Of a DNA stretch of 64,000 bases, positions 10,684 through 38,502 are shown piece by piece; the first letter of the stretch is position 1, and each line of letters opens with the position of its first letter. The stretch lies in NCBI GenBank assembly GCA_963740905.1, contig CAVUFY010000011.1, positions 22,864-86,863 of the forward strand, read 5' to 3'. The notes under the pieces are model-generated. The model ran no database searches. It had not been told where the DNA came from and was given only the letters and a program-made list of their open reading frames with translations. The translations under genes were made by a program, and so were the position numbers. The stretch is from an uncultured delta proteobacterium (GTDB taxonomy: Bacteria; Desulfobacterota; DSM-4660; Desulfatiglandales; HGW-15).

Positions 10684-10686
10684 AAT

Positions 10687-11538: not shown

Positions 11539-11715
11539 TTCATCACTCCTTGGCATAGAATGCGATTCCGTCTTTCCAGACGAGAAGAATTTATTGCGTA
11601 GTCGAAAGATCCGCATATCCGAGTACGTCATTTTTGCATCGAACAAATTAATATACAGACCTGATCTCCTGCTGTCAAACCCAATCTGAAAAGGACGGGC
11701 AGCCAATCTCCGAAT

Positions 11716-12357: not shown

Positions 12358-14316
12358 GGTCGCCCCCTTCGGGATCGTCTGCGGGCAAAGTAAAGCGGAA
12401 TCTCATCCATTGTCCCGATTCTGAATCGGCCCAGATACTTCCCCCATGTCTGGCGAGGATATTCCGTGTGATAAACAAACCGAGTCCGGTGCTTCTGGAT
12501 GATTCCGTCGGGGTATCGAACCTCACGAATTTCTCGAAAAGCCGAGGAAGCTGCTCCTTGGTCAAGCCCTGTCCTTCATTCCAGACCTCGAACCGAAGCA
12601 TGCCGTCTTCTTCTTCAAACCCGAGGCTCACTCTTCCTTCCTGTTTGCCGTATTTGAGAGCATTATCCAGAAGGTTACGATAGGCGATCTTAAGAAGAGC
12701 CACATCGGCGTAAACCGGAATCGACACAGGAAGCGCTTTTTCGATCGTCGCCTTGCGCTCGTTGATCATGGGTTTCAGTTCTTCGAGCACAGGATTGACG
12801 ATGTCCTTGATCATCTCTGCTTTCTTGAGGCTGACTTTCAGTTCTCCTTTTTCGATGCGAGACAGGTCCAGGTAGTTTCGGGTCATTTTCACCGCACCGT
12901 CGATGCTCCTGGCTATGTTTCTCGCGAGAGCGGCCTGAGATTCGGTTAAGGACCCAACAAGACCCGTATCGAGAGCTCGTGCGGAGGTGTAGATCACGCC
13001 AAGGCTGTTCTTTAGCTCATGAGAAACAAACCCGAGCATGTCCATATAGTTTCTGTTCAGTTCCTGAAGGGAATAGTTGGTTTGCTCCAGCGCGGCGTAG
13101 GCATTCCTCAGTTTTTCATCCCTCTCCTTCAGCCGGACGGCCATGACGTTGAAAGCGCGGGTCAAATCCTTTACCTCATCGTCAGCCTTGGGCTCTTTGA
13201 CATTCAAGTCGAGGTTCCCGCCTGCGATGGTCCTGGCTGCGTCGGCCAACCCACTGATCGAGCCGGTCAAACGCCTCGCGAAGATCAAACCGACGGCGAG
13301 CACAAAGATCCCCACGCCCACGGAGATTGTGCCGTAGACTTTCCACAGGGCCCACTTCAGATCGTCATACTGCTGAGAGAGCACACCCACGTAGAGAATC
13401 CCGATCACCTTTCCTTCCACATCATGGATGGGATCATACGCGCTCAGGTACCAGTCATTGACGACAAAGGCCCGGTCGTACCAGGGCAGACCGTTTTCAA
13501 GGAGTTTATCGTAAACTTCTTCGCTCACCCTTGTCCCTATGGCTCTGTTGCCGTTAGGAAGGATCACGTTGGTAGCAATGCGACAGTCCCATTGAAAGAT
13601 CGTCACCGTGCCCAGCTGCCGGCCCTGATAAAGCTTGTCTTCAAAGACAATGGACCGGATCTTGTCCACGAGTCCGTGGTTGCGATTGAGGAGGCATCCC
13701 GCGTAAAGGGCGCCCATGATTTTTCCCCCTCATCGAAGACGGGAGCGGCAGCGATGAGGGCCATTCCCGCGGTCTCGGATGTCTTGGCCCGGATTTTTGA
13801 CTTCGGCGTGGGTTCAAAGACCATGAAGGCGCGCTCCTCCAGATCGCCTCCCTCGTCACGAAGCCTGCCTGGGCCAAGCAGGGCGATCCCTTTTTTCGTT
13901 TCTCCCTTGAGAGCAGCCGCAACAAACGGGTCGTTCGACAGGTAGTCCCCGATCTTGTAGGGCTGCAAGGTCCGGATCATAACCTTTCCCTTGCTGTCCG
14001 TCAGACACAGAAAGTCAAATCCGCACTGTCGCCTCACCGCCTCAAGAGCCGTCCTGTTGGCCGGTGAATCCGGCGTGGCACAGGCCTCGTCAACCCGCCT
14101 CCCCGTGCTGAGAACGCGGACAAAGAGCTGAAGCCTGTCCTCCTCGTTGTAGAGGATGTTCCATGCGGAGCGCAGGTCGAGACTTACCCGGCGCTGAGCT
14201 TCATCCAGCGTGGTCCGGTTGATGAGGAAAGCGCTGACCACCGCCCCCAGCACACCGAAAAGTGCAATGACCAGCACGAAATTGAGAAATATGCGTTTAT
14301 GCAGCCTGATTCGCAC
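12347..14316 (-). CDS. Cache-HAMP sensor histidine kinase, split by a 1-nt frameshift at ~13720-13729
   Basis: ORFs 13603-14316 (TM, Cache start) and 12347-13717 (Cache end, TM, HAMP, VSHELKN, NLLDNALKY, GLGL) join colinearly with paralog 26282-28207 if one base is added in the G5A5 run. Confidence 0.85.
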
Positions 14317-14484: not shown

Positions 14485-16380
14485 TCAGTGATTCTCCTGG
14501 GCCACAGGAAGAAGACAGGTGAAGGTGGTCCCATCGCCCACTCTGCTCTTGACCGAAATGGAGCCCCCAAGAAAATCCACGATCTCCTTGACGATCACGA
14601 GCCCTAGACCCGTCCCCTCCTCTGCAAGCGCTTTCGCATTCTCGGCACGGAAAAACTCCGTGAAGAGTCGCGACACGTCTTCTTCCGGTATTCCGATGCC
14701 TGTGTCGGAAACCTGGAACTTGACACGGTCCCGGCTGAGGGGTTCCAGGACAACGTTCACCTTTCCTCCTGACGGAGTGTACTTCACGGCATTGGAGATG
14801 AGGTTGGTAAACAGCTCGTCGATAAGTTTCTCATCACCCATGACCTGAGGCACCCCGTCCCCGATCTGAAAAGCGATCTGCACTCCCTTTCCTGACGCGG
14901 GGGACTCAAACAGATCGGCGAGAGAAGTCAGGACCCTTCCGGCGTCCACCGCATGGGGCGTGACTCGATCGGAGCTCATGCGCCGGATTCCCAGCTTCAA
15001 CAGGTCACTCACCAGCGATCCCAGCATCTCCAGCCGCTTCTCGCATCGCAGGAGCGCGTCTTGCTGCTGTTCCGTCACAGGACCCATGTACCCTTTTCTG
15101 AGCACCTTCATCAGGCTGTAGATGGCATTGAAGGGAGACTTGAGCTGGTGCGCAGCTTTTTGGAGAAACCATGTCTTGCTGATCTCCATCTTGAGAGTCT
15201 CGATGGCTAGGGCCGTCAAGTCGCTCACCAGGGAGAAGAACTGGATATCACCGTCATTGAAGTGGTAGGACACGTCACTGTAGATGCAAAACACGCCGAG
15301 GGGCAATTTCTCTATTTTGAGGGGCAGGCAGACCATGGAGGCAATGCCTTCCTTTCGGATGTCTTCAGGGTATTGAAAGTAGTCCGCTTCCTCGATCCTT
15401 CCTACTGCCACATAGGATCCATGAATAATGCGCCGGTTGATGGGACTCTTATCGATGTCCACGGCCCCTTTGGCCAGGTAGTTTTCACTCAGGCCAAAGG
15501 TCGAAGCGAACACCAGCTTCTGGCCTGTTTCATCCAGAAGCTTGATGGAAGACCCTTTCACCCCCATGATGCTCGCCACGCTGCGGGTTGCCAGGTCCAT
15601 GAGTTCCTTAAGGTCCGAGCTCATGCCCATCTTCTTGACCACGTCGTAGAGGGCCGTGAGTTTTGCGTTGCTCACGTCGAGTTCTTTGGACACTCTGAGT
15701 AGATCCCGGCCCTTTTGCCACAGGCTCTTTCTCACGGAGGTAGTCAGATAGGCGGTAATCAAGACGGCGGCCACAAAAAAGGCGAGCAGGATCATAATGT
15801 CGGTCAGACTTCGCCCAATCGTCACGAAATGCGGGAAGGCGGGGCTTTGGAGCAGGCCAGGTTGTTCCGGAAGGATGGTCGCCTTCTGAAGCCCAAGGAG
15901 ACATATCATGGCGGCAAGGACGCAAAGGCTGTAGACATAGCAGCTCACGGGAGAAAGCAAAATGCCCGCAAGGATAATGTGGAAGATGACAAACATAAGG
16001 AGAGGGCTGTAAATCCCTCCCGTAAAATAAATCATCACATACAGGGCGAGGAGATCCAGGGAAATCTGCACGTGCGCAAAGGTGAGGAAAGGCCGGGTGT
16101 CTTGGCCTTTGAAAACATCGAGCCTATGCCAGGCGTAGAAAAAGATCAGGTTGTATAGGAGAATCCCCAGAGCGATACAGGTGATGGGATAGGCCGGGAA
16201 TCTCGGCTCCACATAGTGGAGAATCCAGGCCCCCCCCGCAGCGACGCCTACGGCGATCCATCGAATGTGGATGAACCAGTGAACTCTTTCTGTGAGTTCT
16301 TTGCGAAAAAACAGCTGCTGCTTTACTAGCTCATATCCCGGCTCCTGGGAAGCTTCTTTTGCCCCTTCGGGAAGGGTCAT
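14485..16380 (-). CDS. Multi-TM, GAF-containing sensor histidine kinase
   Basis: Several N-terminal TM helices, GAF (SMVCLPL..GVFCIY), AAHQLKSP H-box, NLISNAVKY, DTGIGI and GTGLGL. Confidence 0.9.
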   Translation of the reverse strand: MTLPEGAKEASQEPGYELVKQQLFFRKELTERVHWFIHIRWIAVGVAAGGAWILHYVEPRFPAYPITCIALGILLYNLIFFYAWHRLDVFKGQDTRPFLTFAHVQISLDLLALYVMIYFTGGIYSPLLMFVIFHIILAGILLSPVSCYVYSLCVLAAMICLLGLQKATILPEQPGLLQSPAFPHFVTIGRSLTDIMILLAFFVAAVLITAYLTTSVRKSLWQKGRDLLRVSKELDVSNAKLTALYDVVKKMGMSSDLKELMDLATRSVASIMGVKGSSIKLLDETGQKLVFASTFGLSENYLAKGAVDIDKSPINRRIIHGSYVAVGRIEEADYFQYPEDIRKEGIASMVCLPLKIEKLPLGVFCIYSDVSYHFNDGDIQFFSLVSDLTALAIETLKMEISKTWFLQKAAHQLKSPFNAIYSLMKVLRKGYMGPVTEQQQDALLRCEKRLEMLGSLVSDLLKLGIRRMSSDRVTPHAVDAGRVLTSLADLFESPASGKGVQIAFQIGDGVPQVMGDEKLIDELFTNLISNAVKYTPSGGKVNVVLEPLSRDRVKFQVSDTGIGIPEEDVSRLFTEFFRAENAKALAEEGTGLGLVIVKEIVDFLGGSISVKSRVGDGTTFTCLLPVAQENH

Positions 16381-16383
16381 AGC

Positions 16384-16797
16384 TCATTCCTTTGCCGTCT
16401 CCCTGAGAACATTTTCGATCACGGAAAGCAGTTCTTCAGGGTCGAGGGGCTTTTCAAGGAAGTGGGTTACGGGCCAGTTCTCCCCCATCACGTGCTGAAA
16501 CTTCTCCGGCCCCTCTTCGGCCATCTTCTTAGTGAAACCCGTTGCCATGATAATAGGGATCTGACGATAGGCCGGATTGTTCCGAAGCTTGTAGGCAAGA
16601 CTAAAGCCTTCGGTGTCCGTAGCCATCATCACATCCAGGATGATGAGATCCGGAGCCTTTTCCTGAATTTTCTGGAAACCGTCCTTTCCGTTGTAGGCCT
16701 CGCGGACGTGGTATTGCTTGCTTTCCAGAACAATGCGGATGGATTCGACGAGGTCGCGGTCGTCATCGATGATGAGTATCTCTTCCCCGGTAGTCAT
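16384..16797 (-). CDS. Single-domain response regulator
   Basis: IIDDD, LDVMM, ATG and EKP. Confidence 0.9.
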   Translation of the reverse strand: MTTGEEILIIDDDRDLVESIRIVLESKQYHVREAYNGKDGFQKIQEKAPDLIILDVMMATDTEGFSLAYKLRNNPAYRQIPIIMATGFTKKMAEEGPEKFQHVMGENWPVTHFLEKPLDPEELLSVIENVLRETAKE

Positions 16798-16845: not shown

Positions 16846-17316
16846 TCAACCGGTTTTCGCCGAGATGAATCCTGCGATTTCCCGGCATGCCTTAAGAGCC
16901 CTTGCTTGTGCTTCTTCGGTCAGCCCTTCTCCGTGACCGAAGTCTTCGCCCTGAACGGAGACCAGCCACGTCTCCGGTGCCTTATGGTAAAGCGAAGAAA
17001 GAAGGCTCAGGAACAAAGAGGGCCTGAAATGGTGGGTCGTGTGGGCGAAGCCCCTTGTCTCAGGGCTAACCTTGCCCCACTGCCTCCCGTTCACCAGTTG
17101 TTCTACGGTTGCATCCACAAAAACGACGAGATCACTGTCTTGGACTTCATCGAGCAGCACAGGATCAAGCTGGTGAAACGCAAGAATCCGTGTTCCCTGG
17201 CGAAGTATGCCCCGCAGCCTTTCCGCCACAAAAGCGCCGATCCCGTCGTCTCTTCGGAACGGATTTCCGTAGCCGATGATGCAGACCTGACATGCTTTGG
17301 ATTCCGCCCCGTTCAC
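16846..17316 (-). CDS. hoxW: Hydrogenase maturation protease
   Basis: IGYGNPFRRDDGIG, FVDA and TTHH; follows the large subunit. Confidence 0.85.
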   Translation of the reverse strand: MNGAESKACQVCIIGYGNPFRRDDGIGAFVAERLRGILRQGTRILAFHQLDPVLLDEVQDSDLVVFVDATVEQLVNGRQWGKVSPETRGFAHTTHHFRPSLFLSLLSSLYHKAPETWLVSVQGEDFGHGEGLTEEAQARALKACREIAGFISAKTG

Positions 17317-17319
17317 GGA

Positions 17320-18750
17320 TCAATCCCTCTTCAATTCTCTCAAGAGGGCCCCTTCGCGGCCGTACAGCCTGATTATCAGGGGCATCTGCCCGAGAGCATG
17401 GGTTGAACAGGACAGGCACGGATCATAGCAACGGATGGCTCCTTCCACCCTGTTGAGAAGACCTTCTCTCACTTCTCCGGCGTGGATGTACTCCTTTGCA
17501 ACGAGTTCCACAGATCGATTCATGGCGATGTTGTTGTGCCCGGTGGCTACGATGAGATTGGCCTTCCGGATGGCGCCGTGCCTGTCCACCTGGTAGTGGT
17601 GAATCAGGGTCCCTCTCGGAGCTTCGATCACGCCCACGCCCTCTTCGCAGGAGGGATCGGCGGTGACCCGGACGTCTCTGCCGCAAATTCCCTTGTGTTT
17701 GAGCAGCGCTTCGGCCCTTTCCAGGCAGTTAAGGAGTTCGATCATACGCGCGTAGTGGTACATCAGGGTCCCGCCTTCAAGACCTCCTCGAGCCTTGGCC
17801 CTGTAAACATCCAGCGCTTCATCGGCTTGGGGCGTGCTCATGCCGTCCGCCGCGTTCACCCTGCCGAGAGGTCCCACGCGATAGCACCCCTGAGGATAAC
17901 CTTGAGGCTTGAAAAAGGGGAACTTCAAATAGGACCAGGGCTCCACGTGCTCGCCGATGAAATCCAGATAACGGGCCGGGTCGAACTGGGCAAGCACTTC
18001 CCGGTCCGGACCCACGACTCTCAACTGACCGTCGTACATGTTCGGCCTGCCCTTATCATCTACCAGTCCGGCGTAGTTGGATCGGTAGGTGGCGAATGTT
18101 TCCACCTCTCTCAGGTTCTTCGTTACCCAGTCCTTGATGACGTCGAGCCCGATTCGGGCCGTCTCGTAAGCTTCATCAAGACCGGAGACCAGGCGATCCC
18201 GGTCTTCCGGGGCCAGAGGGTTCATCACCCCGCCGGGGACCGCAAAAGCGGGATGGACTTTCTTTCCTCCCAGGGCCTTGATGATTTCCTGACCGTACTT
18301 CCTCAGCCGGATCCCCTTCCTGGCTACCTCCGGAAACTCGCCGATGACGCCGATAACGTTTCGCTTCGCGGGGTCCGCATCCCACCCCAAAAGGAGGTCG
18401 GGGCTGGCAAGGTAAAAGAAATGCAGGGCATGGGACTGAATGAACTGCCCCATGTGCAGCAGATCCCGAACAAGCTTTGCCGTTTCCGGGATCTCAACTC
18501 CCAGGATCGCATCACATGCCTTGGCGGAGGCCAGTTGATGACTGACAGGGCAGATTCCGCAGATGCGCTGCGTGATCACCGGCATCTCCTCAAAGGGCCT
18601 CCCTTCGCAGAATCGCTCATAGCCTCTGAACTGGGTCACATGAAATCGTGCTTCTTCCACCTCGCCCCTGTCATCCAGGCGAATGACCACTTTGCCATGT
18701 CCTTCCAGGCGGCTGATGGGATTGATCGTGATTTTTCTTGGTTGAGCCAT
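17320..18750 (-). CDS. hoxH: [NiFe]-hydrogenase large subunit, group 3 (HoxH/HydL)
   Basis: SRLEGHG, L1 RICGICPVSH, EAPRGTLIHHY and L2 YDPCLSCSTH with a cleavable tail. Confidence 0.95.
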   Translation of the reverse strand: MAQPRKITINPISRLEGHGKVVIRLDDRGEVEEARFHVTQFRGYERFCEGRPFEEMPVITQRICGICPVSHQLASAKACDAILGVEIPETAKLVRDLLHMGQFIQSHALHFFYLASPDLLLGWDADPAKRNVIGVIGEFPEVARKGIRLRKYGQEIIKALGGKKVHPAFAVPGGVMNPLAPEDRDRLVSGLDEAYETARIGLDVIKDWVTKNLREVETFATYRSNYAGLVDDKGRPNMYDGQLRVVGPDREVLAQFDPARYLDFIGEHVEPWSYLKFPFFKPQGYPQGCYRVGPLGRVNAADGMSTPQADEALDVYRAKARGGLEGGTLMYHYARMIELLNCLERAEALLKHKGICGRDVRVTADPSCEEGVGVIEAPRGTLIHHYQVDRHGAIRKANLIVATGHNNIAMNRSVELVAKEYIHAGEVREGLLNRVEGAIRCYDPCLSCSTHALGQMPLIIRLYGREGALLRELKRD

Positions 18751-18781
18751 GTCTTCGTCTCCTTTATGAAGAACCGTTCAT

Positions 18782-18860
18782 CCCCCTCACCCCCGTACCA
18801 AGTACGGGGCAAGCTCTGTCCTCTGTCCCAACCGCAGAGAAGAGGGTTGGGGTGAGGGGG
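18782..18860. repeat. Intergenic palindromic repeat with nested hairpin
   Basis: CCCCCTCACCCC...GGGGTGAGGGGG enclosing CCCCGTAC-CAA-GTACGGGG. Confidence 0.75.
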
Positions 18861-18872
18861 CGGTCCCGTCAA

Positions 18873-19415
18873 TCAATCAAAGTGCATCATCTCCTGGGGC
18901 AGGATGGGCACTCTGCCCTTGAGGATCGATACCAGGCTGTAGCCAAGCGCCTCCGTAGAGGGCGGGCATCCCGGCACATAGACGTCCACCGGAACCACCT
19001 GGTTTACGGGCAGAACCTTGTCCAGGAGAGGGGGGAGTTCCTCGTGAATCGGCAGGACCCCGTCCACGGTGCTTTCCGTTTCCACGTACCCTCGCCGCAA
19101 GACTTCTTCCTTGGGGATCGAGTTGCGCAGTGTGTTCACGCCTCCGAACACCGCACAATCTCCCCATGCCACCAGGGTCTTGCAGCTTTTTCTAAGCTTG
19201 TGTGCGACCTCCAGGTGTTCCTCGTTGCCGATGCCTCCTTCAATGATGCCAACCTCCAATTCAGGGAAAGCATAATCCTTGAAATCAGTAATCGGTGTAA
19301 AGGTCAGTTCCACCTGCGAAAGAATGCCCAGGAGGTCTTCGTCCATATCCAGAAAGGCCATATGACACCCTGCACACCCTTCGAACCATACAGTTGCTAC
19401 CTTAGGTACTCCCAT
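18873..19415 (-). CDS. hoxY: [NiFe]-hydrogenase small subunit (HoxY/HydS, one proximal cluster)
   Basis: GCAGCHMA, EGG, GDCA and PGCPP; 180 aa, no Tat signal. Confidence 0.93.
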   Translation of the reverse strand: MGVPKVATVWFEGCAGCHMAFLDMDEDLLGILSQVELTFTPITDFKDYAFPELEVGIIEGGIGNEEHLEVAHKLRKSCKTLVAWGDCAVFGGVNTLRNSIPKEEVLRRGYVETESTVDGVLPIHEELPPLLDKVLPVNQVVPVDVYVPGCPPSTEALGYSLVSILKGRVPILPQEMMHFD

Positions 19416-19448
19416 GGGTTCCCTCCACGTGTCGCCGGCAAGAGTCGC

Positions 19449-21524
19449 TCACTTCCGCTGACCCCGGCCTTTAATTGCTTTTTCCGCTTTACCAGACAGG
19501 TCATCCAAACTGGGGAAAGTGTGACGGTACCCCGCATGCTCCGCCAGGGATTTCAGGACATCCCAGGAAGTCATGACCCCTTCAGGGGGATCGAGTATCT
19601 TTTGCTTATACGTCACGTCCCTTCCGTCCAGGGATGTGAATGAGCCATGCTCTTCTGTCCACAAAGGCTTTGGAATGACCGCACGAACTTTTTCGGCCAG
19701 GCTCTCCGGAAAATAGGGGCTGATGACAGCAAGGAAATCCGGATCCCCTACACGGGCCAGAGCAGGAGATTCAAGATCCCTGGCATGACTTAGGACCATG
19801 ATCCCGCTCTTCCCTATTTCAGTTTTCCCGTTCCCGCAAAGCCCGAGTTTCCTCGCTCCCGCGCTGTTCCCGAAAGGCTTCAGGGTCATGAGCCGCACCA
19901 CATCGCCCGAGGCTGTGCCCTTTGCCCGGGCCAGTTTCAGGGCATCCTGGAATGCCGCCGCGCTTTTCAACCCTGTGACCCCTTCCCCGACCATGAGAAG
20001 AGGACTGGCGGACAGGGCAAAAGCCTCTGCCATGTCGTAGAAAGCCTTTTTCTCATCCTTAGACAACGCCGCGTCCTTCAGCAGGCCCTGAACATCGCCC
20101 TTCACACCTCGAGGAACCGCTTTGCCTTTCCTCGACGGCTTTTTCATCCGGTCGGCCACTTCCAGCCGGAAGGCCTTAATGAGAGAGGGGAGCTTTCTGC
20201 CGTCCACAGGGAATTCAAAAGCCGCGAAGGGAGGCATGCAATCCATTTCTCCAATCACCGCCACCTTCAGCCCCCTTTCGATGATGCCCCGCCTGATCAG
20301 GGAAGACAGCATGGGCTGAGTCTGATACAGATTGGCTCCGAGGAGAGCGATGAAATCGGCTTCGGGGATCATGGCCCACGAGGCCTCCTTAATGGGTTCT
20401 CCGGACCCCTTCTCCTCGACGAGAGAAACAGCCCTGAGGCTGCCGGCGTCGAGGCTCCCCACAAATCCCGCAGAAAACCCTTTGGTCATCAGGTCACGGA
20501 AAAACAGGAACTCCTCGTTGGACGAGGCTCCGGAGATCAACCCGAAAAGGGCGTCTCCTCCCTGCCGGCGCTGGATGGTCTTCAGGTTAGACGCCACAAA
20601 GGCGAAGGCCTCGTTCCAGTCTTTCTCCTTCCATGATCCGTCGGTGTTCTTCACCATAGGCCGGAGGAGGCGCTTGCCGTCGCTCTTGAGCGTCTCAAAC
20701 CGGCCTTTGACGCAGAGCTGACCTCGGTCCGGTCGGCCGTTTTGGCCCAGGTCTCCTTCGATCTTGATGATCGTGTTTTCATGAACATGGTTCACGGTGG
20801 GGCACAGGAGACCGCACTGGGGGCAAACGGAGTCCACCTTCTTCCAGTCCCGAGTATGGCCCTTCACCGCATAATGGGTTCTGTGTCGATTGTAGATAGC
20901 CCCTGTGGGACACACCTGCAGACACACCCCGCAGCCGTAACATGTTGATTCCTCCCTGCTGGCGTGAAGGTCCAGACCCACCATGTTCCGTGGTCCTCGA
21001 TTGTGGAAATTGAGAACATGGTTTCCCGCCAGCTCGGCGCAAGCCCTCACACATCGTCCGCAGAGAATACACCGGTTGTGGTCGATGACCATGTCGTCGT
21101 TGGTCACGTCCGTGGGAAACTCGTTGAAAGAGAAAGAAACGGTCAGGTGATCCATCCCCAGCCCATAGGCCAGCTTCTGGAGCTCGCAGTCACCGCTTTG
21201 GGGACAGAACATGCAGTTGTGATTCCTCTCCGCAAACAGGAACTCCAGGATGGTCCGCCTGCTCTCGACGATGCGTTCGTTGGCGGTGACCACTTCCATG
21301 CCATCCCGAACAGGCGTGACACAGCTCGCGGCAAGCTTGGGAGCGCCGTCGATCTCTACTACGCACATCCTGCATCCCCCCCAGTTCGAAAGGGCGGAAT
21401 GGTAGCAGAGCGTGGGGATGGGAATGCCGTTCTTTTCCGCCGCTTCAAGGACGGTTATCCCTTCCGCTACCGTCAACTCCTTCCCGTCCATGGTAATCTT
21501 CACTGTCTTTTGATTAGCGTCCAT
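19449..21524 (-). CDS. Extended HoxU/NuoG-like Fe-S subunit (HydA-type) with apparently cofactor-less molybdopterin-fold C-terminus
   Basis: PTLC..GCRMC..ASC [2Fe-2S], HNCMFC..C, CILCGRC..C, CYGCGVC..CP and CPQCGLLC..GQLC; the remaining ~400 aa is Fdh/NuoG-like with no recognisable Mo/W ligand motif. Confidence 0.85.
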   Translation of the reverse strand: MDANQKTVKITMDGKELTVAEGITVLEAAEKNGIPIPTLCYHSALSNWGGCRMCVVEIDGAPKLAASCVTPVRDGMEVVTANERIVESRRTILEFLFAERNHNCMFCPQSGDCELQKLAYGLGMDHLTVSFSFNEFPTDVTNDDMVIDHNRCILCGRCVRACAELAGNHVLNFHNRGPRNMVGLDLHASREESTCYGCGVCLQVCPTGAIYNRHRTHYAVKGHTRDWKKVDSVCPQCGLLCPTVNHVHENTIIKIEGDLGQNGRPDRGQLCVKGRFETLKSDGKRLLRPMVKNTDGSWKEKDWNEAFAFVASNLKTIQRRQGGDALFGLISGASSNEEFLFFRDLMTKGFSAGFVGSLDAGSLRAVSLVEEKGSGEPIKEASWAMIPEADFIALLGANLYQTQPMLSSLIRRGIIERGLKVAVIGEMDCMPPFAAFEFPVDGRKLPSLIKAFRLEVADRMKKPSRKGKAVPRGVKGDVQGLLKDAALSKDEKKAFYDMAEAFALSASPLLMVGEGVTGLKSAAAFQDALKLARAKGTASGDVVRLMTLKPFGNSAGARKLGLCGNGKTEIGKSGIMVLSHARDLESPALARVGDPDFLAVISPYFPESLAEKVRAVIPKPLWTEEHGSFTSLDGRDVTYKQKILDPPEGVMTSWDVLKSLAEHAGYRHTFPSLDDLSGKAEKAIKGRGQRK

Positions 21525-21542
21525 AGTTCTCTTTTCTCCCTT

Positions 21543-21568
21543 ATGAAATCTGCTTTGACAGATTTCAT
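21543..21568. repeat. Short palindrome ATGAAATCTG-N6-CAGATTTCAT
   Basis: Perfect 10-bp arms abutting a stop codon; related copies at 54284-54319 and 63142-63168. Confidence 0.7.
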
Positions 21569-24500
21569 CACGCCTTTACATCGCACCGAAGGCACCGGCA
21601 CGACTCCTGGAATGCATCCTCCTCGGACAGGCCGAGTTCCACCTCGCGAAAATCCTTGATGCGTTCCCGGCATTCGGTCTCCAGTGTGCAGGCCCGGTTG
21701 ATTTCCCGGATTTCTTCTTCCACGGTCATGGGAATGTCGATGTCAACGTCGTGCGCGACAAATGCCGGCTCACCGTTTCTCTTGCGAATGACAAGATCAA
21801 TCTCATCCGCAGCATGGTGTCCTGCCGCAATGGCGTTCACCACCGTATCGGGCCCCGTCACCACGTCTCCGCCGGCAAACACCATGGAGACGTTTGTTTC
21901 CGTTTTCTTGCCACTGGCCACCTCGACGAGGCCTCGCTTGTTCACGGGCACACCGCCGTCTCCCGAAACAAACGGGTATTCAGGCTCTTGGCCGATCGCC
22001 AGGATGACCTGATTCGCGTCGAGGAAGAAGTCTTCGCCCAGTTTCGACACCGGCTTCTTGCGGCCGGTGCCGTCGAACTCTCCCAGAATCATGTCTTGGC
22101 AAACCACCTTTTCGAGGCGGCCGTTGGACCCCAGAAACTTGGAAGGAGCCGTCAGGTACCTGATCTTCACGCCCTCTTCTTCCGCGGCTCTGATCTCTTC
22201 TTCCTGGGCCGGCATATCTTCTCTCAATCGACGGTAAAGAATGGTTACCTCCTTTGCCCCCAGTCGCACGGCCGATCGGGAGGCATCAATGGCGGAGTTT
22301 CCGCCTCCCACCACGGCCACTCGTTCTCCCACGGGAGGATTCATCCCCAGGTTCACATCCCTGAGGAACTCGACAGCCCCTACCACGCCGTTCAGGTTTC
22401 CTCCTTCCATGGAAAATCCGACGCTTCGTTGAGCGCCGATCGCAAGGTACACGGCTCCGAAGGAATTCCGGACATCTTCCCATGGTACATCCCGGCCCAC
22501 CTTAGTGTTGGCTCGGAGTTCCACCCCCAGGTTCAGGATGTCGTCAATCTCCCGTCTGAGAATGTCCCTGGGCAGGCGGTATTCGGGAATACCCCACCGG
22601 AGCATGCCTCCAGGCTCCGGATATTCGTCGAAGATAGTGACGGCGTATCCCCTGAGCGCCAGGTCTTTCGCCGCGGTCAGGCCGGACGGTCCGGCGCCGA
22701 TGACGGCGATTTTCTCTCTTCTGGTGATTTCCGGCCTGGGCACCGAGGGCCGAGTCCCGCGGTCGGTGATGAACCGCTTGAGGTTCTTAATGCTCACCGG
22801 TTCGTCCACTGTGGCCCGCCGGCACTTGGATTCGCAGTAATGGTTGCAAACCCGCCCGCAAATGCTAGGGAAAGGGTTGGTCTGGAGAAGAACCTTGTAG
22901 GCGTCATCCAGACGGCCGGCCTTGACAAGCGCCACATAGCTCGGAATGTCCATGCCGATGGGGCAGGCATGGATGCATGGCGCCTTGTACAACGAGGAAC
23001 ACACCACGGCCGGGCAGCGTTTTTCCCTGATGTGGGCTTCGTATTCGTGCCTGAAATAGCGGATGGTGGAGAGAACCGGATTGGGCGCCGACTGCCCCAG
23101 ACCGCACAGAGCGGTGTTCTTGATGATGTGTGCCCATCGCTCCAGCTTTTCGATATCGCCTTCCTGACCCTCCCCGTTGCAGATCCCGGTAAGGATCTCC
23201 AGCATCTTCTGGGTTCCCACACGGCAAGGCGTACACTTCCCGCATGATTCATCCCTGCAGAACTCCAGGAAGAAACGGGCCACGTCTACGACACACTTGT
23301 CCTCGTCCATCACGATCATGCCGCCCGACCCGACGATGGCGCCCAGTTGCATGATCGATTCATAGTCTACCGGCGTGTTCAGGTACTGTACCGGTACGCA
23401 TCCGCCCGAAGGACCCCCAAGCTGTACGGCTTTGAACTGCTTTCCTCTGGGGATGCCTCCGCCGATGTCGTGGATGATGGTGCCCAGGGAGATGCCCATG
23501 GGCACCTCCACCAGCCCTACGTTTTTCACGTCACCGGTAAGGGCGAAAACCTTGGTTCCCCGGCTTCGCAATGTCCCCATTCCGGCGTACCACTTCCCGC
23601 CTTTGAGAATGATCTGGGGAATATTGGCCAGGGTCTCCACGTTGTTCAGGATCGTCGGCTTTTTCCACAGCCCCTGCACCGCCGGAAACGGAGGCCGGGG
23701 CCGGGGCATCCCCCGCTTTCCTTCAATGGAGGTCATGAGGGCTGTTTCCTCCCCGCAGACAAAAGCCCCTGCACCCCTGTAGACTTCCACGTCAAAGTCG
23801 AAGCCCGACCCCAGGATGTTTTTCCCCAGCAGGCCGTATTGTCTTGCCTGACTAATGGCGATGTTCAACATCTTCACAGCCAGTGGATATTCGGCCCGGC
23901 AATAGATGTAACCTTGATGGGAGCCGATCGCTTTGGCGGCAATCACCATCCCTTCGAGAACGGCATGGGGGTCAGATTCCAGGACGCACCGGTCCATGAA
24001 TGCGCCGGGGTCTCCCTCGTCCGCATTGCACAGGACATACTTCACCTCCCCGCGAGACCTCGATGCAAACTCCCATTTCATACCTGTGGGAAATCCTGCT
24101 CCGCCCCTCCCCCGAATGCTCGAGGTTTTCACCTCCTTGATAATCTCGTCCGGGGACATCTGATAAAGGGCCTTTGCCACGCCGAAGTAGCCATCCTTCG
24201 CGATGTACTCTTCAATACGTTCGCCCTGGATCAACCCGCGGTTTCTCATGACGACCGGGTTCTGCATGCCGAAGAAGGGAATATCACGAGTGCGGGGCAT
24301 TTTTTCAACGGCCGGGGAAGAGGGTCCTTCAAAATCCATCTCCCTTTGTTCCCAGCCTCTTGCAAACACCCACTCCGAGACTGCCTCTCCTTTGATCACG
24401 TGTTTCCTGAAAATCTCGCGGGCCTTCTCCTCGGTCACCTCGGCATACTTCACCGGCTCCTCTCCCGCGCGCTCCACCGTGATCAGAGGCTCTCTATTGC

Positions 24501-24720
24501 AAATCCCTGCGCATCCGGAGGTCGTAACGGTGATGTCCTTCTTCTTTGAAGACTTCACCTCCTCCTTGAAAGCCCGCAATACCTCGCCTGCCCCTGATGA
24601 GATTCCGCATGTCCCCATGTGGACGGTCACTCTGACCGTATGCTTCCCGCTCTCCAGAAGGGAAGACCTGAGTATCTCTCCTTTAATCCTGTAAAGTTCC
24701 TCGATATTTAGCGCTGGCAT
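21568..24720 (-). CDS. HoxF/HydB (NuoF-like) subunit fused to a GltD/NfnL-like FAD/NAD(P)H oxidoreductase
   Basis: Trx-like ferredoxin (GTCG..GCAGIC..EP), RGRGGAGFPTG, NADEGDPGAFMDR, GAFVCGEETAL, GGPSGG and CGKCTPC..C; then PCIHACP, CGRVC..CE..CRR, GAGPSG, GGGNSA, YRR, GGDVVTGP and RCLRC; start moved to MPALNIEE (SD AAGGAG). Confidence 0.92.
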   Translation of the reverse strand: MPALNIEELYRIKGEILRSSLLESGKHTVRVTVHMGTCGISSGAGEVLRAFKEEVKSSKKKDITVTTSGCAGICNREPLITVERAGEEPVKYAEVTEEKAREIFRKHVIKGEAVSEWVFARGWEQREMDFEGPSSPAVEKMPRTRDIPFFGMQNPVVMRNRGLIQGERIEEYIAKDGYFGVAKALYQMSPDEIIKEVKTSSIRGRGGAGFPTGMKWEFASRSRGEVKYVLCNADEGDPGAFMDRCVLESDPHAVLEGMVIAAKAIGSHQGYIYCRAEYPLAVKMLNIAISQARQYGLLGKNILGSGFDFDVEVYRGAGAFVCGEETALMTSIEGKRGMPRPRPPFPAVQGLWKKPTILNNVETLANIPQIILKGGKWYAGMGTLRSRGTKVFALTGDVKNVGLVEVPMGISLGTIIHDIGGGIPRGKQFKAVQLGGPSGGCVPVQYLNTPVDYESIMQLGAIVGSGGMIVMDEDKCVVDVARFFLEFCRDESCGKCTPCRVGTQKMLEILTGICNGEGQEGDIEKLERWAHIIKNTALCGLGQSAPNPVLSTIRYFRHEYEAHIREKRCPAVVCSSLYKAPCIHACPIGMDIPSYVALVKAGRLDDAYKVLLQTNPFPSICGRVCNHYCESKCRRATVDEPVSIKNLKRFITDRGTRPSVPRPEITRREKIAVIGAGPSGLTAAKDLALRGYAVTIFDEYPEPGGMLRWGIPEYRLPRDILRREIDDILNLGVELRANTKVGRDVPWEDVRNSFGAVYLAIGAQRSVGFSMEGGNLNGVVGAVEFLRDVNLGMNPPVGERVAVVGGGNSAIDASRSAVRLGAKEVTILYRRLREDMPAQEEEIRAAEEEGVKIRYLTAPSKFLGSNGRLEKVVCQDMILGEFDGTGRKKPVSKLGEDFFLDANQVILAIGQEPEYPFVSGDGGVPVNKRGLVEVASGKKTETNVSMVFAGGDVVTGPDTVVNAIAAGHHAADEIDLVIRKRNGEPAFVAHDVDIDIPMTVEEEIREINRACTLETECRERIKDFREVELGLSEEDAFQESCRCLRCDVKA

Positions 24721-24731
24721 GAACTCACTCC

Positions 24732-25244
24732 TTATTTGTCGTATGCGCCCAAGACACCGAGCACTTTCGATGGTTTCATCTGGCGATGGGTATCCTCGTC
24801 CACCACCACAACTGGCGCCAGTCCGCAGGCGCCGAGACATCTCACGGTTTCCAGGGAGAATAGTCTGTCTTGAGTCGTCTCTCCCGGTTCGATTTTCAGT
24901 TTGTCCTTCAGCGTATCCAGGATCTTGCTCCCTCCCCTCACATAGCACGCCGTACCCAGGCAGCACCGGACCGTGTGCTTGCCTCTAGGAGCCATGGTAA
25001 AGAAGGAATAGAACGTGACGACACCGTAAACTTCGCCGAAGGGAATCCGCAGGCCTCTGGCCACTCTTTCAAGAACCGGTTTTGGAAGATATCCGATCGT
25101 CTCCTGGATCTCTTCCAGCACCGGGATAAGCGATCCAGGTTTTGTCCTGTGCCGCTCGACGATCGCATCAATTGCCGCCCATTGTTCGGCCGTAAACTCC
25201 TGCTGTCCTTCCGCCACTGCCTCTTTTTCTTGTTTTGCTGCCAC
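24732..25244 (-). CDS. hoxE: HoxE/HydC (NuoE-like) [2Fe-2S] subunit
   Basis: VYGVVTFYSFF, CLGTACYVRG and CLGACGLAP; GTG start with SD AGGAGG. Confidence 0.92.
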   Translation of the reverse strand: MAAKQEKEAVAEGQQEFTAEQWAAIDAIVERHRTKPGSLIPVLEEIQETIGYLPKPVLERVARGLRIPFGEVYGVVTFYSFFTMAPRGKHTVRCCLGTACYVRGGSKILDTLKDKLKIEPGETTQDRLFSLETVRCLGACGLAPVVVVDEDTHRQMKPSKVLGVLGAYDK

Positions 25245-25274: not shown

Positions 25275-25913
25275 TCACCAGCCGAAGGTCCTGAGCATCT
25301 CCGGGCTGAGGGGCTTTTCAAGCCACCTCTTCTGGTTGGTCGTCAGGGAGCCTACGTGCTTCTCGATCCACTCTGTATCTCCGGTGAGAAGGGCCAGTTT
25401 TTCTGCGTTGTTCAGATTGTACTCCTCAAGGGCATCGGCCCAGTGATGAAACAGGTTGTACACGAATTCCCCGTCCGTCGCGGCTCGATCGAGCACCCGG
25501 ACAATGTCCTCTTTATGGACCAGAGCCTGCTCATCGGGTGGCCGGGAAGCCGAATTTTCGATGGCCAGGGCAACGGCCTCCATGAGATGGTCCGGCGTAA
25601 AGGGCTTCTCTACGTAATCCGCAGCACCGAGCTTCATGGCTTGAACAGCCGAATTTACGGAAGCATAACCCGTGATGATCATCACGGGCAGCATGGGCTT
25701 TGCCCTTTTGATATCCCTTAGCACCAGCATCCCGCCGATGTCGGGCATACGTATATCCGTCAGCACCACGTCATAGTCCTTCCGAACGGCCCATTCCAGC
25801 CCCTGCCTGCCGCTCAACGTCCCTTCTACGTCAAAATTTTCCTCAAGGATCTTTTTCACGCTGTCAAGAATGATCTTCTCGTCGTCAATCACCGGCGCTT
25901 TTCTTCTAGCCAT
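25275..25913 (-). CDS. Response regulator (REC + helical extension), paralog of 11716-12357
   Basis: TDIRMPDIGG, KPF and shared tail HHWADALE..EKLALLTGD.EWIEK..QKRWL..FGW. Confidence 0.9.
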   Translation of the reverse strand: MARRKAPVIDDEKIILDSVKKILEENFDVEGTLSGRQGLEWAVRKDYDVVLTDIRMPDIGGMLVLRDIKRAKPMLPVMIITGYASVNSAVQAMKLGAADYVEKPFTPDHLMEAVALAIENSASRPPDEQALVHKEDIVRVLDRAATDGEFVYNLFHHWADALEEYNLNNAEKLALLTGDTEWIEKHVGSLTTNQKRWLEKPLSPEMLRTFGW

Positions 25914-26274
25914 GGCCTTCCTCCTTCATGAGGACCTGATCGATCGCTTGCACGAGCTCGTCAGGCGTAAATGGTTTGGCCAGGAACTTGGCCGCGTCGG
26001 TCTTGGCAACTTCTTGCATGGTCTCGTTGGTCACGTAGCCGCTCATGATGATCACTGGGATGTCCGGCCATCCCTCTTTCACCTGCCGCATAAGCGTTAT
26101 GCCGTCCTTGCGAGGCATTTTGATGTCCAGGAGAATCAGAGAGAACAACTTTCGGCTCATGGCGTCGAGGGCTTCATCGGCGGATTTCACCAGTTGGATT
26201 TCGAAGCGATCGCTCAGCACTCTCCTGCAACTCTCAAGCACAATCCGTTCATCGTCTACGATAAGAATCCTCAT
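25906..26274 (-). CDS. Single-domain response regulator
   Basis: MRILIVDDE, LDIKMP, MSGY and KPF. Confidence 0.9.
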   Translation of the reverse strand: MRILIVDDERIVLESCRRVLSDRFEIQLVKSADEALDAMSRKLFSLILLDIKMPRKDGITLMRQVKEGWPDIPVIIMSGYVTNETMQEVAKTDAAKFLAKPFTPDELVQAIDQVLMKEEGHG

Positions 26275-26281
26275 CGCCTCC

Positions 26282-28207
26282 TCACACGATCCTCCCCTCG
26301 AAGGGCACCCAGATGGTGAAGGTGCTGCCCATTCCCACCTCGCTCTGAACCCGGATGCTGCCCCCATGCCTCTGCACGATCCCGAGAGAGACGGCCAGTC
26401 CGAGTCCTGTGCCGTGACCGACTTCTTTGGTGGTGAAGAAGGGATCAAACAATTTGTTGAGATGTTCGGCAGGAATGCCGCAGCCCGTGTCAGTGAAGCA
26501 CATCTCCAGCCCTTCCTGGCCGGCCTCATTGACCAGATCGCTGTTCTTCGTCTCTACGGTGATGCTGTCTCCCGGCTTGGTCGCATCAAGGCCGTTGATG
26601 AGGACATTGAGCAGCACGCTTTGGAACTGATTCCTGTCCATGTTGACGGGCGGCAGGTTTTCGCCGGGATTGAACTTGATATCGACTCCTTTCACCAGGG
26701 CCTGATTCTCCATGAGAGAAATGGTGGAGTTCACGAGTTTGTTAACATCCACTTTTTCCCTGTCCGGTGTGGTCTGCCTCGAAAAGTCGAGAAGCCCTTT
26801 CACGATTTTTCTGACCCGCTCCGTGGCTTCAGCAATGGTCTGCAAATCCGCCCGCACTTCTTCGCTGAGGTCCTTGTGCCGCAGCAGCATGTGGGTGTAA
26901 GTCAAAACGCCGGTGAGAGGGTTGTTGATTTCATGGGCCACGCCGGCTGCGAGCCTTCCCACGCTGGCCTGCTTCTCGGACATGATGAGCCGGTTCTGAC
27001 TTTCCATTCTTCTTCGGCCTACCGCGCCTACCATCTCCTTGAAGGCTCTTTGTAAAATCCCTATTTCATCGCCCGACTCGGGACCGATATCCGGAGCGAG
27101 ACTCCCCTCCGTGACCTGCCGGCTCGCTCTGATCAAGCGTCGAATGGGCCGGATGAGCCTGCCGGCGACAAAACAGCCCATTGCCGCGGCGGCCAGCATC
27201 CCCAGCACCGTGATGAAGATGAAAACTGAAAGAGTGCTCCACCGCATGTCCTTGTACTTTTCGTCCAGCACACCCACGCCCAGGATGCCCACGGTACGAC
27301 CGCCCATGTCCTCAATGGGTTCGTAGGATGTGATGTACCAGTCGCTGATGACCGGGGCGCGTCGCGTCCATCGCTCCTTTCTCTCTAAAACATGCTGCCT
27401 CACTTCTTCCGCCACCTTGGTGCCGACGGCGCGGCCTCCATCCTGGGACGGCACATTGGTGGAGACCCGTACGTCGTTGAAAAAGATCGTGGCCCGACCC
27501 ACACTGCGTCCTTTGTATTCCTCGTTTTGGAAAACCGTGTCCTTGACCGTGTCCACGATCTTTGTGTCCCTGTTCAGCAGGACCCCTCCGTAGAGCACAC
27601 CCAGAAATACTCCCTCGTGGACGATGGGTACGCCTGCACCCAGGGCAAGCCCTGCAGTTTCCGCTCTTTTCCTGTTGGGTTGAGTCCCTGGGGTGGGGAT
27701 GATGTCGATTCTGGCCCTTTCAGCGAGCTGAGGATTCTCTTCGAAAAGGAATTCCTGGCTCAGCACGAAGGTCCCTGATACGGAGGCACCCTTTTCCAAC
27801 GCGAAAGCTGCAATAGGGTTGACTGAAGGGTTTCTTCGACTGGGCTCGGCATTGGGTCCCATCCTGCACACGGGCTCGCCGGCTCGGTTCACGATCCCGG
27901 CGAAGTCCAGGCCTGCATACTCGGACATTCGTCCCAGGCGGAAGGTCAGGTCGGATGTGTCTTTTGTTTTCAGGGCCGTGATGAACCCGAACCCGAGAGT
28001 GGTAATATTCAGACAGGCTTCAATGCTTCTTGCTCTGCTCCGGTACAGTTCACGGGCTGCATTCAGGTCGAGACTCACGCGCATCAAAGCTTCACTGCGC
28101 ACGGAATTATCCAGGAGCCGAGTTCCAACGATGAGAGAAAAAGCCCCCACCACAAATGAGACCCCGATGAAGCTCGCTATCAGCTTTGCCCGTATAGAGT
28201 AGAGCAT
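26282..28207 (-). CDS. Cache-HAMP sensor histidine kinase (NtrB-like kinase core)
   Basis: TM, Cache, TM, HAMP, AAGVAHEINNPL, DTGCGI, FDPFFTTK and GTGLGL. Confidence 0.93.
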   Translation of the reverse strand: MLYSIRAKLIASFIGVSFVVGAFSLIVGTRLLDNSVRSEALMRVSLDLNAARELYRSRARSIEACLNITTLGFGFITALKTKDTSDLTFRLGRMSEYAGLDFAGIVNRAGEPVCRMGPNAEPSRRNPSVNPIAAFALEKGASVSGTFVLSQEFLFEENPQLAERARIDIIPTPGTQPNRKRAETAGLALGAGVPIVHEGVFLGVLYGGVLLNRDTKIVDTVKDTVFQNEEYKGRSVGRATIFFNDVRVSTNVPSQDGGRAVGTKVAEEVRQHVLERKERWTRRAPVISDWYITSYEPIEDMGGRTVGILGVGVLDEKYKDMRWSTLSVFIFITVLGMLAAAAMGCFVAGRLIRPIRRLIRASRQVTEGSLAPDIGPESGDEIGILQRAFKEMVGAVGRRRMESQNRLIMSEKQASVGRLAAGVAHEINNPLTGVLTYTHMLLRHKDLSEEVRADLQTIAEATERVRKIVKGLLDFSRQTTPDREKVDVNKLVNSTISLMENQALVKGVDIKFNPGENLPPVNMDRNQFQSVLLNVLINGLDATKPGDSITVETKNSDLVNEAGQEGLEMCFTDTGCGIPAEHLNKLFDPFFTTKEVGHGTGLGLAVSLGIVQRHGGSIRVQSEVGMGSTFTIWVPFEGRIV

Positions 28208-33353: not shown

Positions 33354-33369
33354 TGGTATGAGAATTGCT
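33354..33369 (+). promoter_or_regulatory. Sigma54 (-24/-12) promoter of TRAP operon 1
   Basis: TGGTAT-GAGAA-TTGCT (GG-N10-GC), ~55 bp upstream of dctP. Confidence 0.65.
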
Positions 33370-33424
33370 CTGTCCTGGTATCCGAGAACCAGGATTTGCA
33401 ACCAATGATTGGGAGGTTAATACG

Positions 33425-34447: not shown

Positions 34448-34607
34448 TTGCCGGGAGGCAAGAACGACGGCTGAGGATGGAGCATGAACTTGCGTCTTCA
34501 GCCGTTGAGCATTTTCTACTCAGCTTTTTTATCGATGGTTCTATGAAGGTTGTCGTGGAGCGCGTTAGAGTCAGATTGTGTGTTCCAGAGAAGTTCGGAG
34601 GGACAGG

Positions 34608-36390: not shown

Positions 36391-36471
36391 CTGGACAGTC
36401 TGAAGTGAGATGCCCCGCCGGCCGGGTGGAACTCTGCTTATGGTCGGGCAGGCGAGAGAGGTTGCGGACAA

Positions 36472-36503: not shown

Positions 36504-36547
36504 CTGTTTATCCTTCCTGTTAAAATGATGTATTCTGAAAAACTCTA

Positions 36548-37561: not shown

Positions 37562-37565
37562 TAAC

Positions 37566-38480: not shown

Positions 38481-38502
38481 CCCGAAGTTTGATGACCGCT
38501 TC

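Follow-up and report, generated by a model that had tools for sequence, protein, structure and literature searches.

Where do the low-potential electrons go in a bifurcating-type [NiFe] hydrogenase whose HydB subunit ends not in a ferredoxin-like domain but in a module for NADPH? This question is raised by an operon on the minus strand of a 64,000-nucleotide stretch of DNA from an uncultured delta proteobacterium (contig CAVUFY010000011.1 of assembly GCA_963740905.1, positions 22,864 to 86,863; the whole stretch is called the window here), in which six co-directional and tightly spaced open reading frames (ORFs) fill positions 16846 to 25244 exactly. Profile searches against Pfam and NCBIfam, together with sequence matches to the Protein Data Bank (PDB), identify the locus as an operon for a soluble [NiFe] hydrogenase of the HydABCSL (Bfu) type, with the genes hydC, hydB, hydA, hydS and hydL for five structural subunits, followed by the protease gene hydD. 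This five-subunit layout had been proposed in a preliminary description of the DNA, and for all five subunits the best PDB match is indeed the bifurcating NiFe-HydABCSL of Acetomicrobium mobile (7T2R), with 607 bits for HydL, 719 for HydB, 313 for HydA, 220 for HydS and 165 for HydC.

The answer is to be sought in hydB (21568..24720, minus strand), which was assigned by Pfam and PDB matches and encodes a protein of 1050 residues made of two parts. Residues 1 to 575 (22996..24720) comprise a thioredoxin (Trx)-like N-terminal domain, the NuoF core with its sites for flavin mononucleotide (FMN) and NAD(H), the B1 [4Fe-4S] cluster and the B2 site, and residues 576 to 1050 with the stop codon (21568..22995) comprise a GltD-like module with two [4Fe-4S] clusters, flavin adenine dinucleotide (FAD) and an NADP(H) site, in place of the B3 and B4 clusters. 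We place the start at the methionine at 24720 (MPALNIE), 11 bases past the hydC stop; the frame is open upstream to a GTG at 24966, and homologues begin at the same methionine (MPALKIE in locus L001). The first part matches Complex1_51K (160.9 bits), SLBB and NADH_4Fe-4S (123.4 bits, to residue 563) and aligns over residues 30 to 579 to residues 7 to 541 of the 597 in 7t2r_B (719 bits), and the second matches Fer4_20/DPD_II at 571 to 655 and Pyr_redox_2 at 670 to 967; at E <= 0.001, Pfam detects no Fer4 dicluster family of the ferredoxin type in HydB. When HydB is aligned to canonical BfuB proteins of other genomes and to three paralogues of the same genome (649, 633 and 630 residues, each ending in a Fer4 dicluster domain), the sequences are common up to RCPAxxC, after which canonical BfuB continues with two CxxCxxCxxxCP motifs, whereas HydB and its relatives continue with APCxHACP and a GltD-type iron-sulfur (FeS) domain. 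The first GltD ligand, C582, follows the B2 ligand C574 after 8 residues, while the first B3/B4 cysteine of canonical BfuB follows after 14. On these alignments, the B3/B4 ferredoxin-like domain is swapped for a complete GltD-like FeS/FAD/NADPH module, which bears out the earlier claim of a B subunit of about 1050 residues with such a domain where HydB normally ends in a ferredoxin domain; the motifs quoted in its support (GDPGAFM, TKVF, GGPSG, DKC, AHI, RCP..VC, GAGPSG, GGGNSA and YRR) can all be read in the translation.

The fusion is genuine. The hydB frame is unbroken across the junction, over 120 proteins in the database, each about 1050 residues long, are at least 71% identical to it over residues 400 to 800, and the GltD part is contiguous with the NuoF part in 52 of 80 related loci. 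Since the fusion recurs in this way across loci and database proteins, misassembly or chance could be ruled out. The 80 loci were kept from contigs of one genome per species, and their sampling is biased because the search patterns lay partly in the GltD part. Logan contigs of four runs held short pieces only, one of which, a 220-base contig of run X2, covers 22860 to 23079, with the junction at 23010, and has 2 differences; as X2 is possibly the source sample, this contig was not counted as independent support.

What the swap would mean for electron flow can be judged against the Bfu model described in PMC12018979 and PMC8880783, in which bifurcation takes place at the FMN with B1 and C1, and the low-potential exit leads through the mobile C1 domain and on to ferredoxin by way of B3/B4. 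B3/B4 is accordingly described as the ferredoxin-reducing end, and ferredoxin as docking between the C-terminal domain of BfuC and the ferredoxin-like domain of BfuB (PMC12018979); the module of Stn and NfnABC, in the account of PMC10482914, is a plain NADPH:FeS oxidoreductase. Because a Stn-type module replaces B3/B4 here, with C582 only 8 residues past C574, a low-potential arm that ends in NADP+ is the simplest reading. H2 would then be coupled to NAD(H) at the FMN and to NADP(H) at the FAD, with NADP+ and not ferredoxin at the end of the low-potential arm, a scheme to which we give about an even chance. Electrons from H2 would pass from the NiFe site of HydL through the HydS cluster and the FeS chain of HydA to B1 and the FMN, where NAD(H) binds, and a second arm would lead from the FMN through the mobile C1 of HydC to the distal [4Fe-4S] cluster of the module, from there to the proximal, Lys-ligated one, and on to the FAD and NADP(H). 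The predicted reaction, 2 H2 + NAD+ + NADP+ <-> NADH + NADPH + 2 H+, would proceed without ferredoxin, by bifurcation in H2 uptake and by confurcation in H2 release, and would link the NADH and NADPH pools to H2. We infer this path, its coupling and direction and the preference for NADP from the sequence. The broader proposal, that we are dealing with a ferredoxin-independent Bfu enzyme acting as an H2-coupled NADH/NADPH transhydrogenase, and that the same fused core serves NiFe and FeFe hydrogenases and formate dehydrogenases, is tentative and falls a little short of an even chance.

The enzyme might, alternatively, still depend on ferredoxin, which would dock on the FeS part of the module or on HydC, so that NADP(H) would be a fourth substrate and a hydrogenase would be combined with an Nfn-like transhydrogenase. 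In NfnL, the two [4Fe-4S] clusters lead to ferredoxin, and the module is homologous to NfnL-type proteins (4ylf_B, 5jca_L); moreover, HydC is intact, and the three ferredoxin-type Bfu cores encoded in the genome indicate that ferredoxin metabolism is present. However, the domain that forms half of the only Bfu ferredoxin site observed, as reported in PMC12018979, is gone. Furthermore, when residues 571 to 1050 were searched alone against the PDB, the best match was to residues 101 to 567 of 9bov_A (Csac NfnABC, 374 bits), followed by 8oh5_C (Sporomusa StnABC, 353 bits), 9n5u_A (Tsi NfnABC, 348 bits), 4ylf_B (331 bits) and 5jca_L (318 bits); the module is thus nearer to Stn/NfnA, whose clusters feed an internal chain, than to NfnL, and ferredoxin dependence appears unlikely to us.

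The cofactor ligands of the module point in the same direction as these scores. The last 30 residues of HydB (…FREVELGLSEEDAFQESCRCLRCD) align to the N-terminus of Thermotoga NfnB and to the segment that follows the module in Stn/NfnA, so the CxxC of the distal cluster is permuted to the C-terminus, as in Stn/NfnA. From the alignment to Csac NfnA, whose A7 cluster is ligated by C108, C147, C151 and K170 (PMC11829005), C586, C625, C629 and K648 are predicted to bind the proximal [4Fe-4S] cluster, and C582, C633, C1043 and C1046 are predicted to bind the distal one. In an alignment of 66 fused proteins (45 to 94% identical to the query), the basis of all conservation counts given here, cysteines 582, 586, 621, 625, 629, 633, 1043 and 1046 and Y829-R830-R831 are kept in 66/66, K648 in 65/66, and both Rossmann folds keep their glycine motifs without exception; the pattern of the GxGxxG, GGGNSA and YRR motifs is identical to that of Stn, NfnA and NfnL. 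By these features, the module is complete and belongs to the NADPH-oxidising Stn/NfnA type.

The same residues bear on the idea of two bifurcation centres, in which the FAD of the module would act, by flavin alone, next to the FMN-FeS centre, as Zheng and Huang postulated in 2024 for sub-type I BfuB (PMC11406978). It draws on the homology to NfnL, whose FAD bifurcates (PMC10482914), and on R715, which aligns to StnC R239 and NfnB R201. On the other hand, (i) K648 aligns to Lys170 of StnC/NfnA, where NfnB has Glu, and the NfnSL signature is consequently absent from the proximal-ligand position; (ii) the FAD of StnC, where R239 lies some 6 A from N5, has been shown not to bifurcate (PMC10482914); and (iii) the operon has no NfnS-like [2Fe-2S]/FAD partner, nor was an NfnS-like gene found between 11.7 and 30.8 kb in the window, so that a high-potential outlet from the FAD is missing. 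For these three reasons, a second bifurcating FAD is disfavoured, and we consider it very unlikely. Of the two functions offered in the preliminary description, the low-potential branch wired to NADP+ thus fits the position of the fusion, while the second bifurcation site finds little footing in the residues around the FAD.

In the NuoF half, the B1 cysteines (493, 496, 499 and 539) and the B2 ligands C476, H563, C569 and C574 are kept in 66/66 fused proteins, and C514 in 55/66. C476, C514, H563, C569 and C574 align to C438, C476, H525, C531 and C536 of A. mobile, giving a B2 site of four Cys and one His; the A. mobile counterpart of C514, Cys476, is itself called semi-conserved in PMC8880783. 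The residues D237, E325, K215 and F210 of the NAD/FMN pocket, whose numbering was tied to Stn and Csac through gap-free alignment spans, are found in 66/66, with E325 and K215 corresponding to the two residues, Glu and Lys, by which Csac NfnB binds the adenine ribose. The N-terminal domain is a weak match to the Trx-like 2Fe-2S family (PF01257, 21.8 bits, under the cut-off of 24.8). Its potential ligands are C38, C70, C74 and His34 only, in a region where the AlphaFold2 model is confident, and the N-terminal domain of StnB has the same three-Cys pattern. At positions 24607-24621 of the window (residues 34-38), HydB reads VHMGTCG against CGGTGC in canonical BfuB, with His34 replacing the first Cys, as it does relative to A. 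mobile HydB; among the 66 fused proteins, this position is H in 36 and C in 27. The site may hold a Cys3His-ligated [2Fe-2S] cluster or another occupant.

The retention of these elements bears on yet another possibility, that of an uncoupled dual-cofactor hydrogenase whose FeS chain equilibrates H2 separately with NAD(H) at the FMN and with NADP(H) at the FAD. H2, at a standard potential of -414 mV, is able to reduce both nucleotides (NADP stands at about -370 to -380 mV), and the group 3b NADPH-type hydrogenase encoded elsewhere in the genome suggests that NADP-linked H2 chemistry is in use there. Non-bifurcating relatives with NuoF-type subunits exist as well (5xf9; PMC9304861). Against this stands the fact that elements described as absent from the non-bifurcating HoxF, FdsB and Nqo1 (PMC9304861) are kept here, namely the B2 ligands (with C514 in 55/66), the N-terminal domain and the C1 of HydC; in addition, an ungated two-site enzyme would be expected to short-circuit the NADPH/NADH disequilibrium. 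We regard uncoupled operation as rather unlikely. For the coupled scheme, with NAD at about -280 mV in vivo (PMC9304861) and NADP taken at about -380 mV, the mean of the two is, by our own arithmetic, about -330 mV, the potential of H+/H2 at about 145 Pa H2 (29.6 mV per decade from -414 mV), and the enzyme could therefore vent NADH and NADPH as H2 below about 145 Pa and make both above it.

Several points nevertheless weigh against the coupled scheme with NADP+ at its low-potential end: (i) the split between NAD and NADP is small compared with that to ferredoxin, and bifurcation is not thermodynamically required, since H2 at high pressure can reduce both nucleotides uncoupled; (ii) the putative preference of the FAD site for NADP over NAD is based on homology of the YRR motif alone; (iii) the contact of C1 with the GltD clusters would follow from sequence position only; (iv) the [2Fe-2S] cluster of the HydB N-terminal domain is uncertain, because His34 stands at the position of the first Cys; and (v) no biochemistry on any fused form was found in the literature.

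An AlphaFold2 model of all 1050 residues, built on the 66-sequence alignment, has a mean predicted local distance difference test score of 89.1 and a predicted template modelling (TM) score of 0.87. In Foldseek searches against the PDB, its N-terminal half matches BfuB chains (9bov_B, target-normalised TM score 0.96), and its C-terminal half matches 9bov_A, 8oh5_C, 9n5u_A, 5jca_L and 4ylf_B; no solved PDB chain spanning both halves was found by Foldseek, the top query-normalised TM score being 0.51. The resemblance of the module to the large subunit of NfnSL/NfnAB extends to a homologous FeS/FAD/NADPH fold (TM scores 0.82 for 4YLF_B and 0.79 for 5JCA_L), but in NfnL the CxxC is N-terminal, one cluster ligand is Glu, the FAD bifurcates and NfnS is the partner, whereas here the CxxC is C-terminal, the ligand is Lys and NfnS is absent. 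With StnABC/NfnABC (8OH5, 9BOV/9BP5, 9N5U), as described in PMC10482914, PMC11829005 and PMC12018979, HydB shares the type of module, the Lys-ligated proximal cluster, the C-terminal RCLxC that completes the distal cluster and a homologous BfuBC core. The difference lies in the placement. In Stn/NfnABC, the module is carried as an insert by the NuoG-like A subunit, in line with the preliminary description, the PDB matches and PMC10482914, and feeds the mid-potential path to B1 and the FMN, while BfuB retains B3/B4 and reduces ferredoxin, and no hydrogenase is part of the described complexes; here, it is C-terminal on the NuoF-like BfuB, at what would be the low-potential end.

The other genes of the operon, all on the minus strand, are those expected of a NiFe-HydABCSL. 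The hydC gene (24732..25244) encodes a NuoE/HoxE-like protein of 170 residues, the C1 [2Fe-2S] carrier (PF01257, 170.8 bits; 7t2r_C, 164.6 bits), in which the Cys motifs CCLGTAC and CLGAC are readable. HydA (19449..21524, 691 residues) is a NuoG-like FeS connector whose molybdopterin-type domain is catalytically empty; it contains the Pfam domains Fer2_4, NADH-G_4Fe-4S_3, Fer4 dicluster, Molybdop_Fe4S4 and Molybdopterin, no Pyr_redox domain was found in it by Pfam, and its residues 6-668 align to 2-666 of the 692 in 7t2r_A (312.8 bits). The small subunit HydS (18873..19415, 180 residues; PF01058), judged by its length to be of the single-cluster type, aligns over residues 3-180 to 3-179 of the 179 in 7t2r_E (220 bits). 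The large subunit HydL (17320..18750, 476 residues; PF00374) scores 607 bits to 7t2r_D, 437 to 5xf9_D (Hox) and 428 to 5odc_F (MvhA); its translation has CxxC at 64/67 and again at 445/448, with His451 and a 25-residue tail after the second pair. A C-terminal tail of this kind is the usual substrate of a maturation protease, and the last gene, hydD (16846..17316), encodes a hydrogenase maturation endopeptidase of 156 residues (TIGR00072, 68.2 bits, cut-off 47.45).

The operon hence has the long NuoG-like HydA without catalytic cofactor, the single-cluster HydS and the group 3 HydL of NiFe-HydABCSL. Compared with the A. mobile enzyme (7T2R/7T30; PMC8880783), the subunits are the same five, four of them of closely similar length (691 here versus 692 residues there for A, 180 versus 179 for S, 476 versus 475 for L and 170 versus 156 for C), the B1 and B2 ligands are common to both, and both operons include a protease and a histidine kinase gene. 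The A. mobile HydB, however, has 597 residues, ends in the two [4Fe-4S] clusters B3/B4 and reduces ferredoxin, where here a 475-residue FeS/FAD/NADPH module is found. The group 3d Hox enzymes (H. thermoluteolus 5XF9; Synechocystis HoxEFUYH) likewise join a NuoE/F/G-type diaphorase to a NiFe SL module, but HoxU has about 240 residues against the 691 of HydA, and Hox has no GltD module. The NCBIfam Hox models score under their cut-offs (HoxE 176.4 against 224; HoxU 238.3 against 333, the latter covering only residues 8-218 of the 691 in HydA).

How far this enzyme departs from what is in print depends on which part is considered. The characterised bifurcating NiFe hydrogenases, from A. mobile and, in a 2026 preprint, Synechocystis HoxEFUYH, use NAD and ferredoxin, and for the latter NADPH was reported to give no support (bioRxiv 10.64898/2026.06.25.734504). 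Sub-type I BfuB of group A3 [FeFe]-hydrogenases, as described in PMC11406978, has the same architecture as HydB, with DPD_II and a C-terminal FAD/NAD(P) domain in place of B3/B4, but its partner is an H-cluster HydA, whereas here NiFe HydSL is joined through the long HydA. The HydDB classification rule implies that proteins with NuoF and GltD parts had already been seen (10.1101/061994). The 2022 catalogue of the Bfu family (Schut et al., PMC9304861), in contrast, requires the ferredoxin-type IPR017896 in BfuB and dropped metagenomic data, for which reasons the fused class is probably outside it, and it includes 6 NiFe-Bfu sequences. In our operon, the NuoF core (IPR011538, IPR019554 and IPR019575 equivalents by Pfam) and a BfuC with C1 are found, and the IPR017896-type C-terminus is not; HydB would thus be Bfu-like and yet, for want of this one defining feature, fall outside the catalogue's definition of the family. 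The literature searched yielded no report of a NuoF-GltD subunit on a NiFe hydrogenase, and nothing relevant came from PMC7325909, PMC4758237, PMC5736913, PMC4046663 or PMC5109826, although the survey supplements of PMC9304861 and PMC11406978 might list such operons. The novelty implied by the preliminary description accordingly narrows: no biochemistry and no NiFe-linked report came to light, but the fused BfuB itself is already in print for [FeFe] hydrogenases (PMC11406978), and what appears to be new is the NiFe-HydABCSL that carries an NADPH-module BfuB.

Among the 80 loci, the full hydC-hydB-hydA-hydS-hydL order is found in 15 (L001, L002, L004, L005, L006, L007, L008, L010, L011, L014, L015, L016, L021, L036 and L039), all from metagenome-assembled genomes labelled Desulfobacteraceae, Desulfobacterales, Desulfarculaceae, Desulfosudis oleivorans (L005), Desulfatitalea, Desulfobacula or more vaguely deltaproteobacterial, and hydD is syntenic in 14 of the 15, with no match in L004. 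The extent of the fusion was further assessed by searching a 300-residue piece spanning the junction in 400 sampled genomes of the phylum of the window, with counts that rest on 150 of 1238 matches. Among the matches listed, at least 116 genomes other than that of the window were counted by hand, and in about 112 of these the match begins at residue 1 or 2 and continues unbroken to residue 292 or beyond. With E <= 1e-150 as the threshold, 54 of 401 genomes encode a HydL-type protein. By hand comparison, at least 18 of 400 genomes have the fused-B junction and hydL on the same contig at a distance of 3.3-3.7 kb, the arrangement seen in the window; the fragmentation of many assemblies makes this number a minimum.

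The fused B is combined with other catalytic partners as well. Ten downstream proteins from nine loci were examined, and beside the fused B we found an [FeFe] HydA in L024, L028, L035 and L040, a formate-dehydrogenase-type subunit in L019 and L046, a polyferredoxin-like BfuA in L030 and L031 (L030 also with a distant NiFe pair) and a glutamate-synthase-like protein in L050. In L019, the formate-dehydrogenase-type subunit is present as two ORFs of 364 and 545 residues, 12 bases apart (10553-13297), a split that could be due to an in-frame selenocysteine codon. In a quick maximum likelihood tree of the B core (74 rows, after the truncated L009, L012, L017, L023, L027, L045, L048, L049, L051 and L053 were dropped), the NiFe-linked forms make up one supported clade (19-20 rows; Shimodaira-Hasegawa-like approximate likelihood ratio test support 95-98), and fused and unfused forms interleave, with 7 changes of which at least 4 are forced. 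A single origin of the fusion was accordingly rejected on this tree of a biased sample of loci, which points to an exchange of the C-terminal module on more than one occasion.

Directly after hydD lie genes for a single-domain response regulator (16384..16797, minus strand; 137 residues, PF00072) and a membrane GAF histidine kinase (14485..16380, minus strand; 631 residues with 6TM_PilS, GAF, HisKA and HATPase_c domains). Of the 15 NiFe loci, 14 have the regulator directly after hydD and 13 have the kinase after the regulator; the pair is also found behind an [FeFe] version (L024), and the A. mobile operon too includes a hisK according to the legend of Fig. 1 in PMC9304861. The two-component pair at 14485-16797 may thus be a dedicated regulator of the hydrogenase. 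Upstream of hydC (25275-28207, minus strand) are a 212-residue response regulator, whose C-terminal half has no family, and a 641-residue sCache/HAMP histidine kinase, a pair that is not kept in most related loci; with a second sCache kinase and regulator at 11716-13717, the operon lies amid three two-component pairs. Farther off, ORFs of 362, 528 and 397 residues at 252-2984 and 9490-10683, the last adjoining an AAA ATPase gene (10687-11706), match no Pfam family at E <= 1e-8, and 33365-42391 holds TRAP transporter genes (DctP, DctM), a methylmalonyl-CoA mutase gene and a gene of the MmgE/PrpD family, ordinary metabolism unrelated to the hydrogenase.

No hyp gene or further hydrogenase gene was found among the ORFs scanned elsewhere in the window; HypD is encoded on another contig (C15) of the genome, which comprises 5.29 Mb in 23 contigs and is 99% complete. 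At this completeness, no Fe_hyd_lg_C match, and hence no [FeFe] hydrogenase, was found in the genome, and neither was a periplasmic hydrogenase with PF00374; there are two NiFe large-subunit genes only, hydL and that of group 3b, which belongs to a four-gene, sulfhydrogenase-like, NADPH-type operon on contig C7 (L088:5215-9066). GltD-like matches, on the other hand, are numerous, with at least twelve further ones in the genome. One protein of 702 residues (contig C7, L089:2569-4677; NF009410, 516.6 bits) carries the same permuted GltD-type module behind an RnfB-like FeS N-terminus, and is the second case in this genome of an NADPH module on a ferredoxin-type FeS domain; its gene stands outside any rnf operon, and after it come two genes for cNMP-binding-domain proteins, of which the first protein is in addition a match to the N-terminal domain of HydB. 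Two loci with canonical BfuB are unusual in other ways. On contig C16, a 394-residue protein with a receiver and a NuoE-type Trx-like [2Fe-2S] domain (L087:1894-3078) is encoded just before a canonical BfuB of 630 residues and a BfuA-like protein of 183, so that the BfuC subunit, by its domains, bears a phospho-receiver. On contig C2, the gene after a canonical BfuC-BfuB pair encodes a BfuA-like protein of 1077 residues (L086:3636-6869), HdrA-like by its domains, which include 2Fe-2S, Fer4 diclusters and two pyridine-nucleotide/FAD-type regions.

To conclude, the NiFe-linked fused form is widespread: against the 6 NiFe-Bfu sequences of the 2022 catalogue (PMC9304861) stand at least 18 of 400 genomes of one phylum with a linked fused B and hydL. 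The mechanism by which one FMN suffices for bifurcation in BfuABC enzymes is described as unsettled (PMC12018979), and the exchange of a ferredoxin domain for an NADPH port amounts to a natural experiment on the low-potential arm of the Bfu core. If the proposed scheme is true, a split of no more than about 100 mV would be enough for bifurcation of the Bfu type, and the fused core would be at work in about one in four of the genomes sampled from the phylum. Many anaerobes would then balance NADPH and NADH directly against H2 or formate without ferredoxin, and models of redox balance in sulfate reducers and syntrophs would change.

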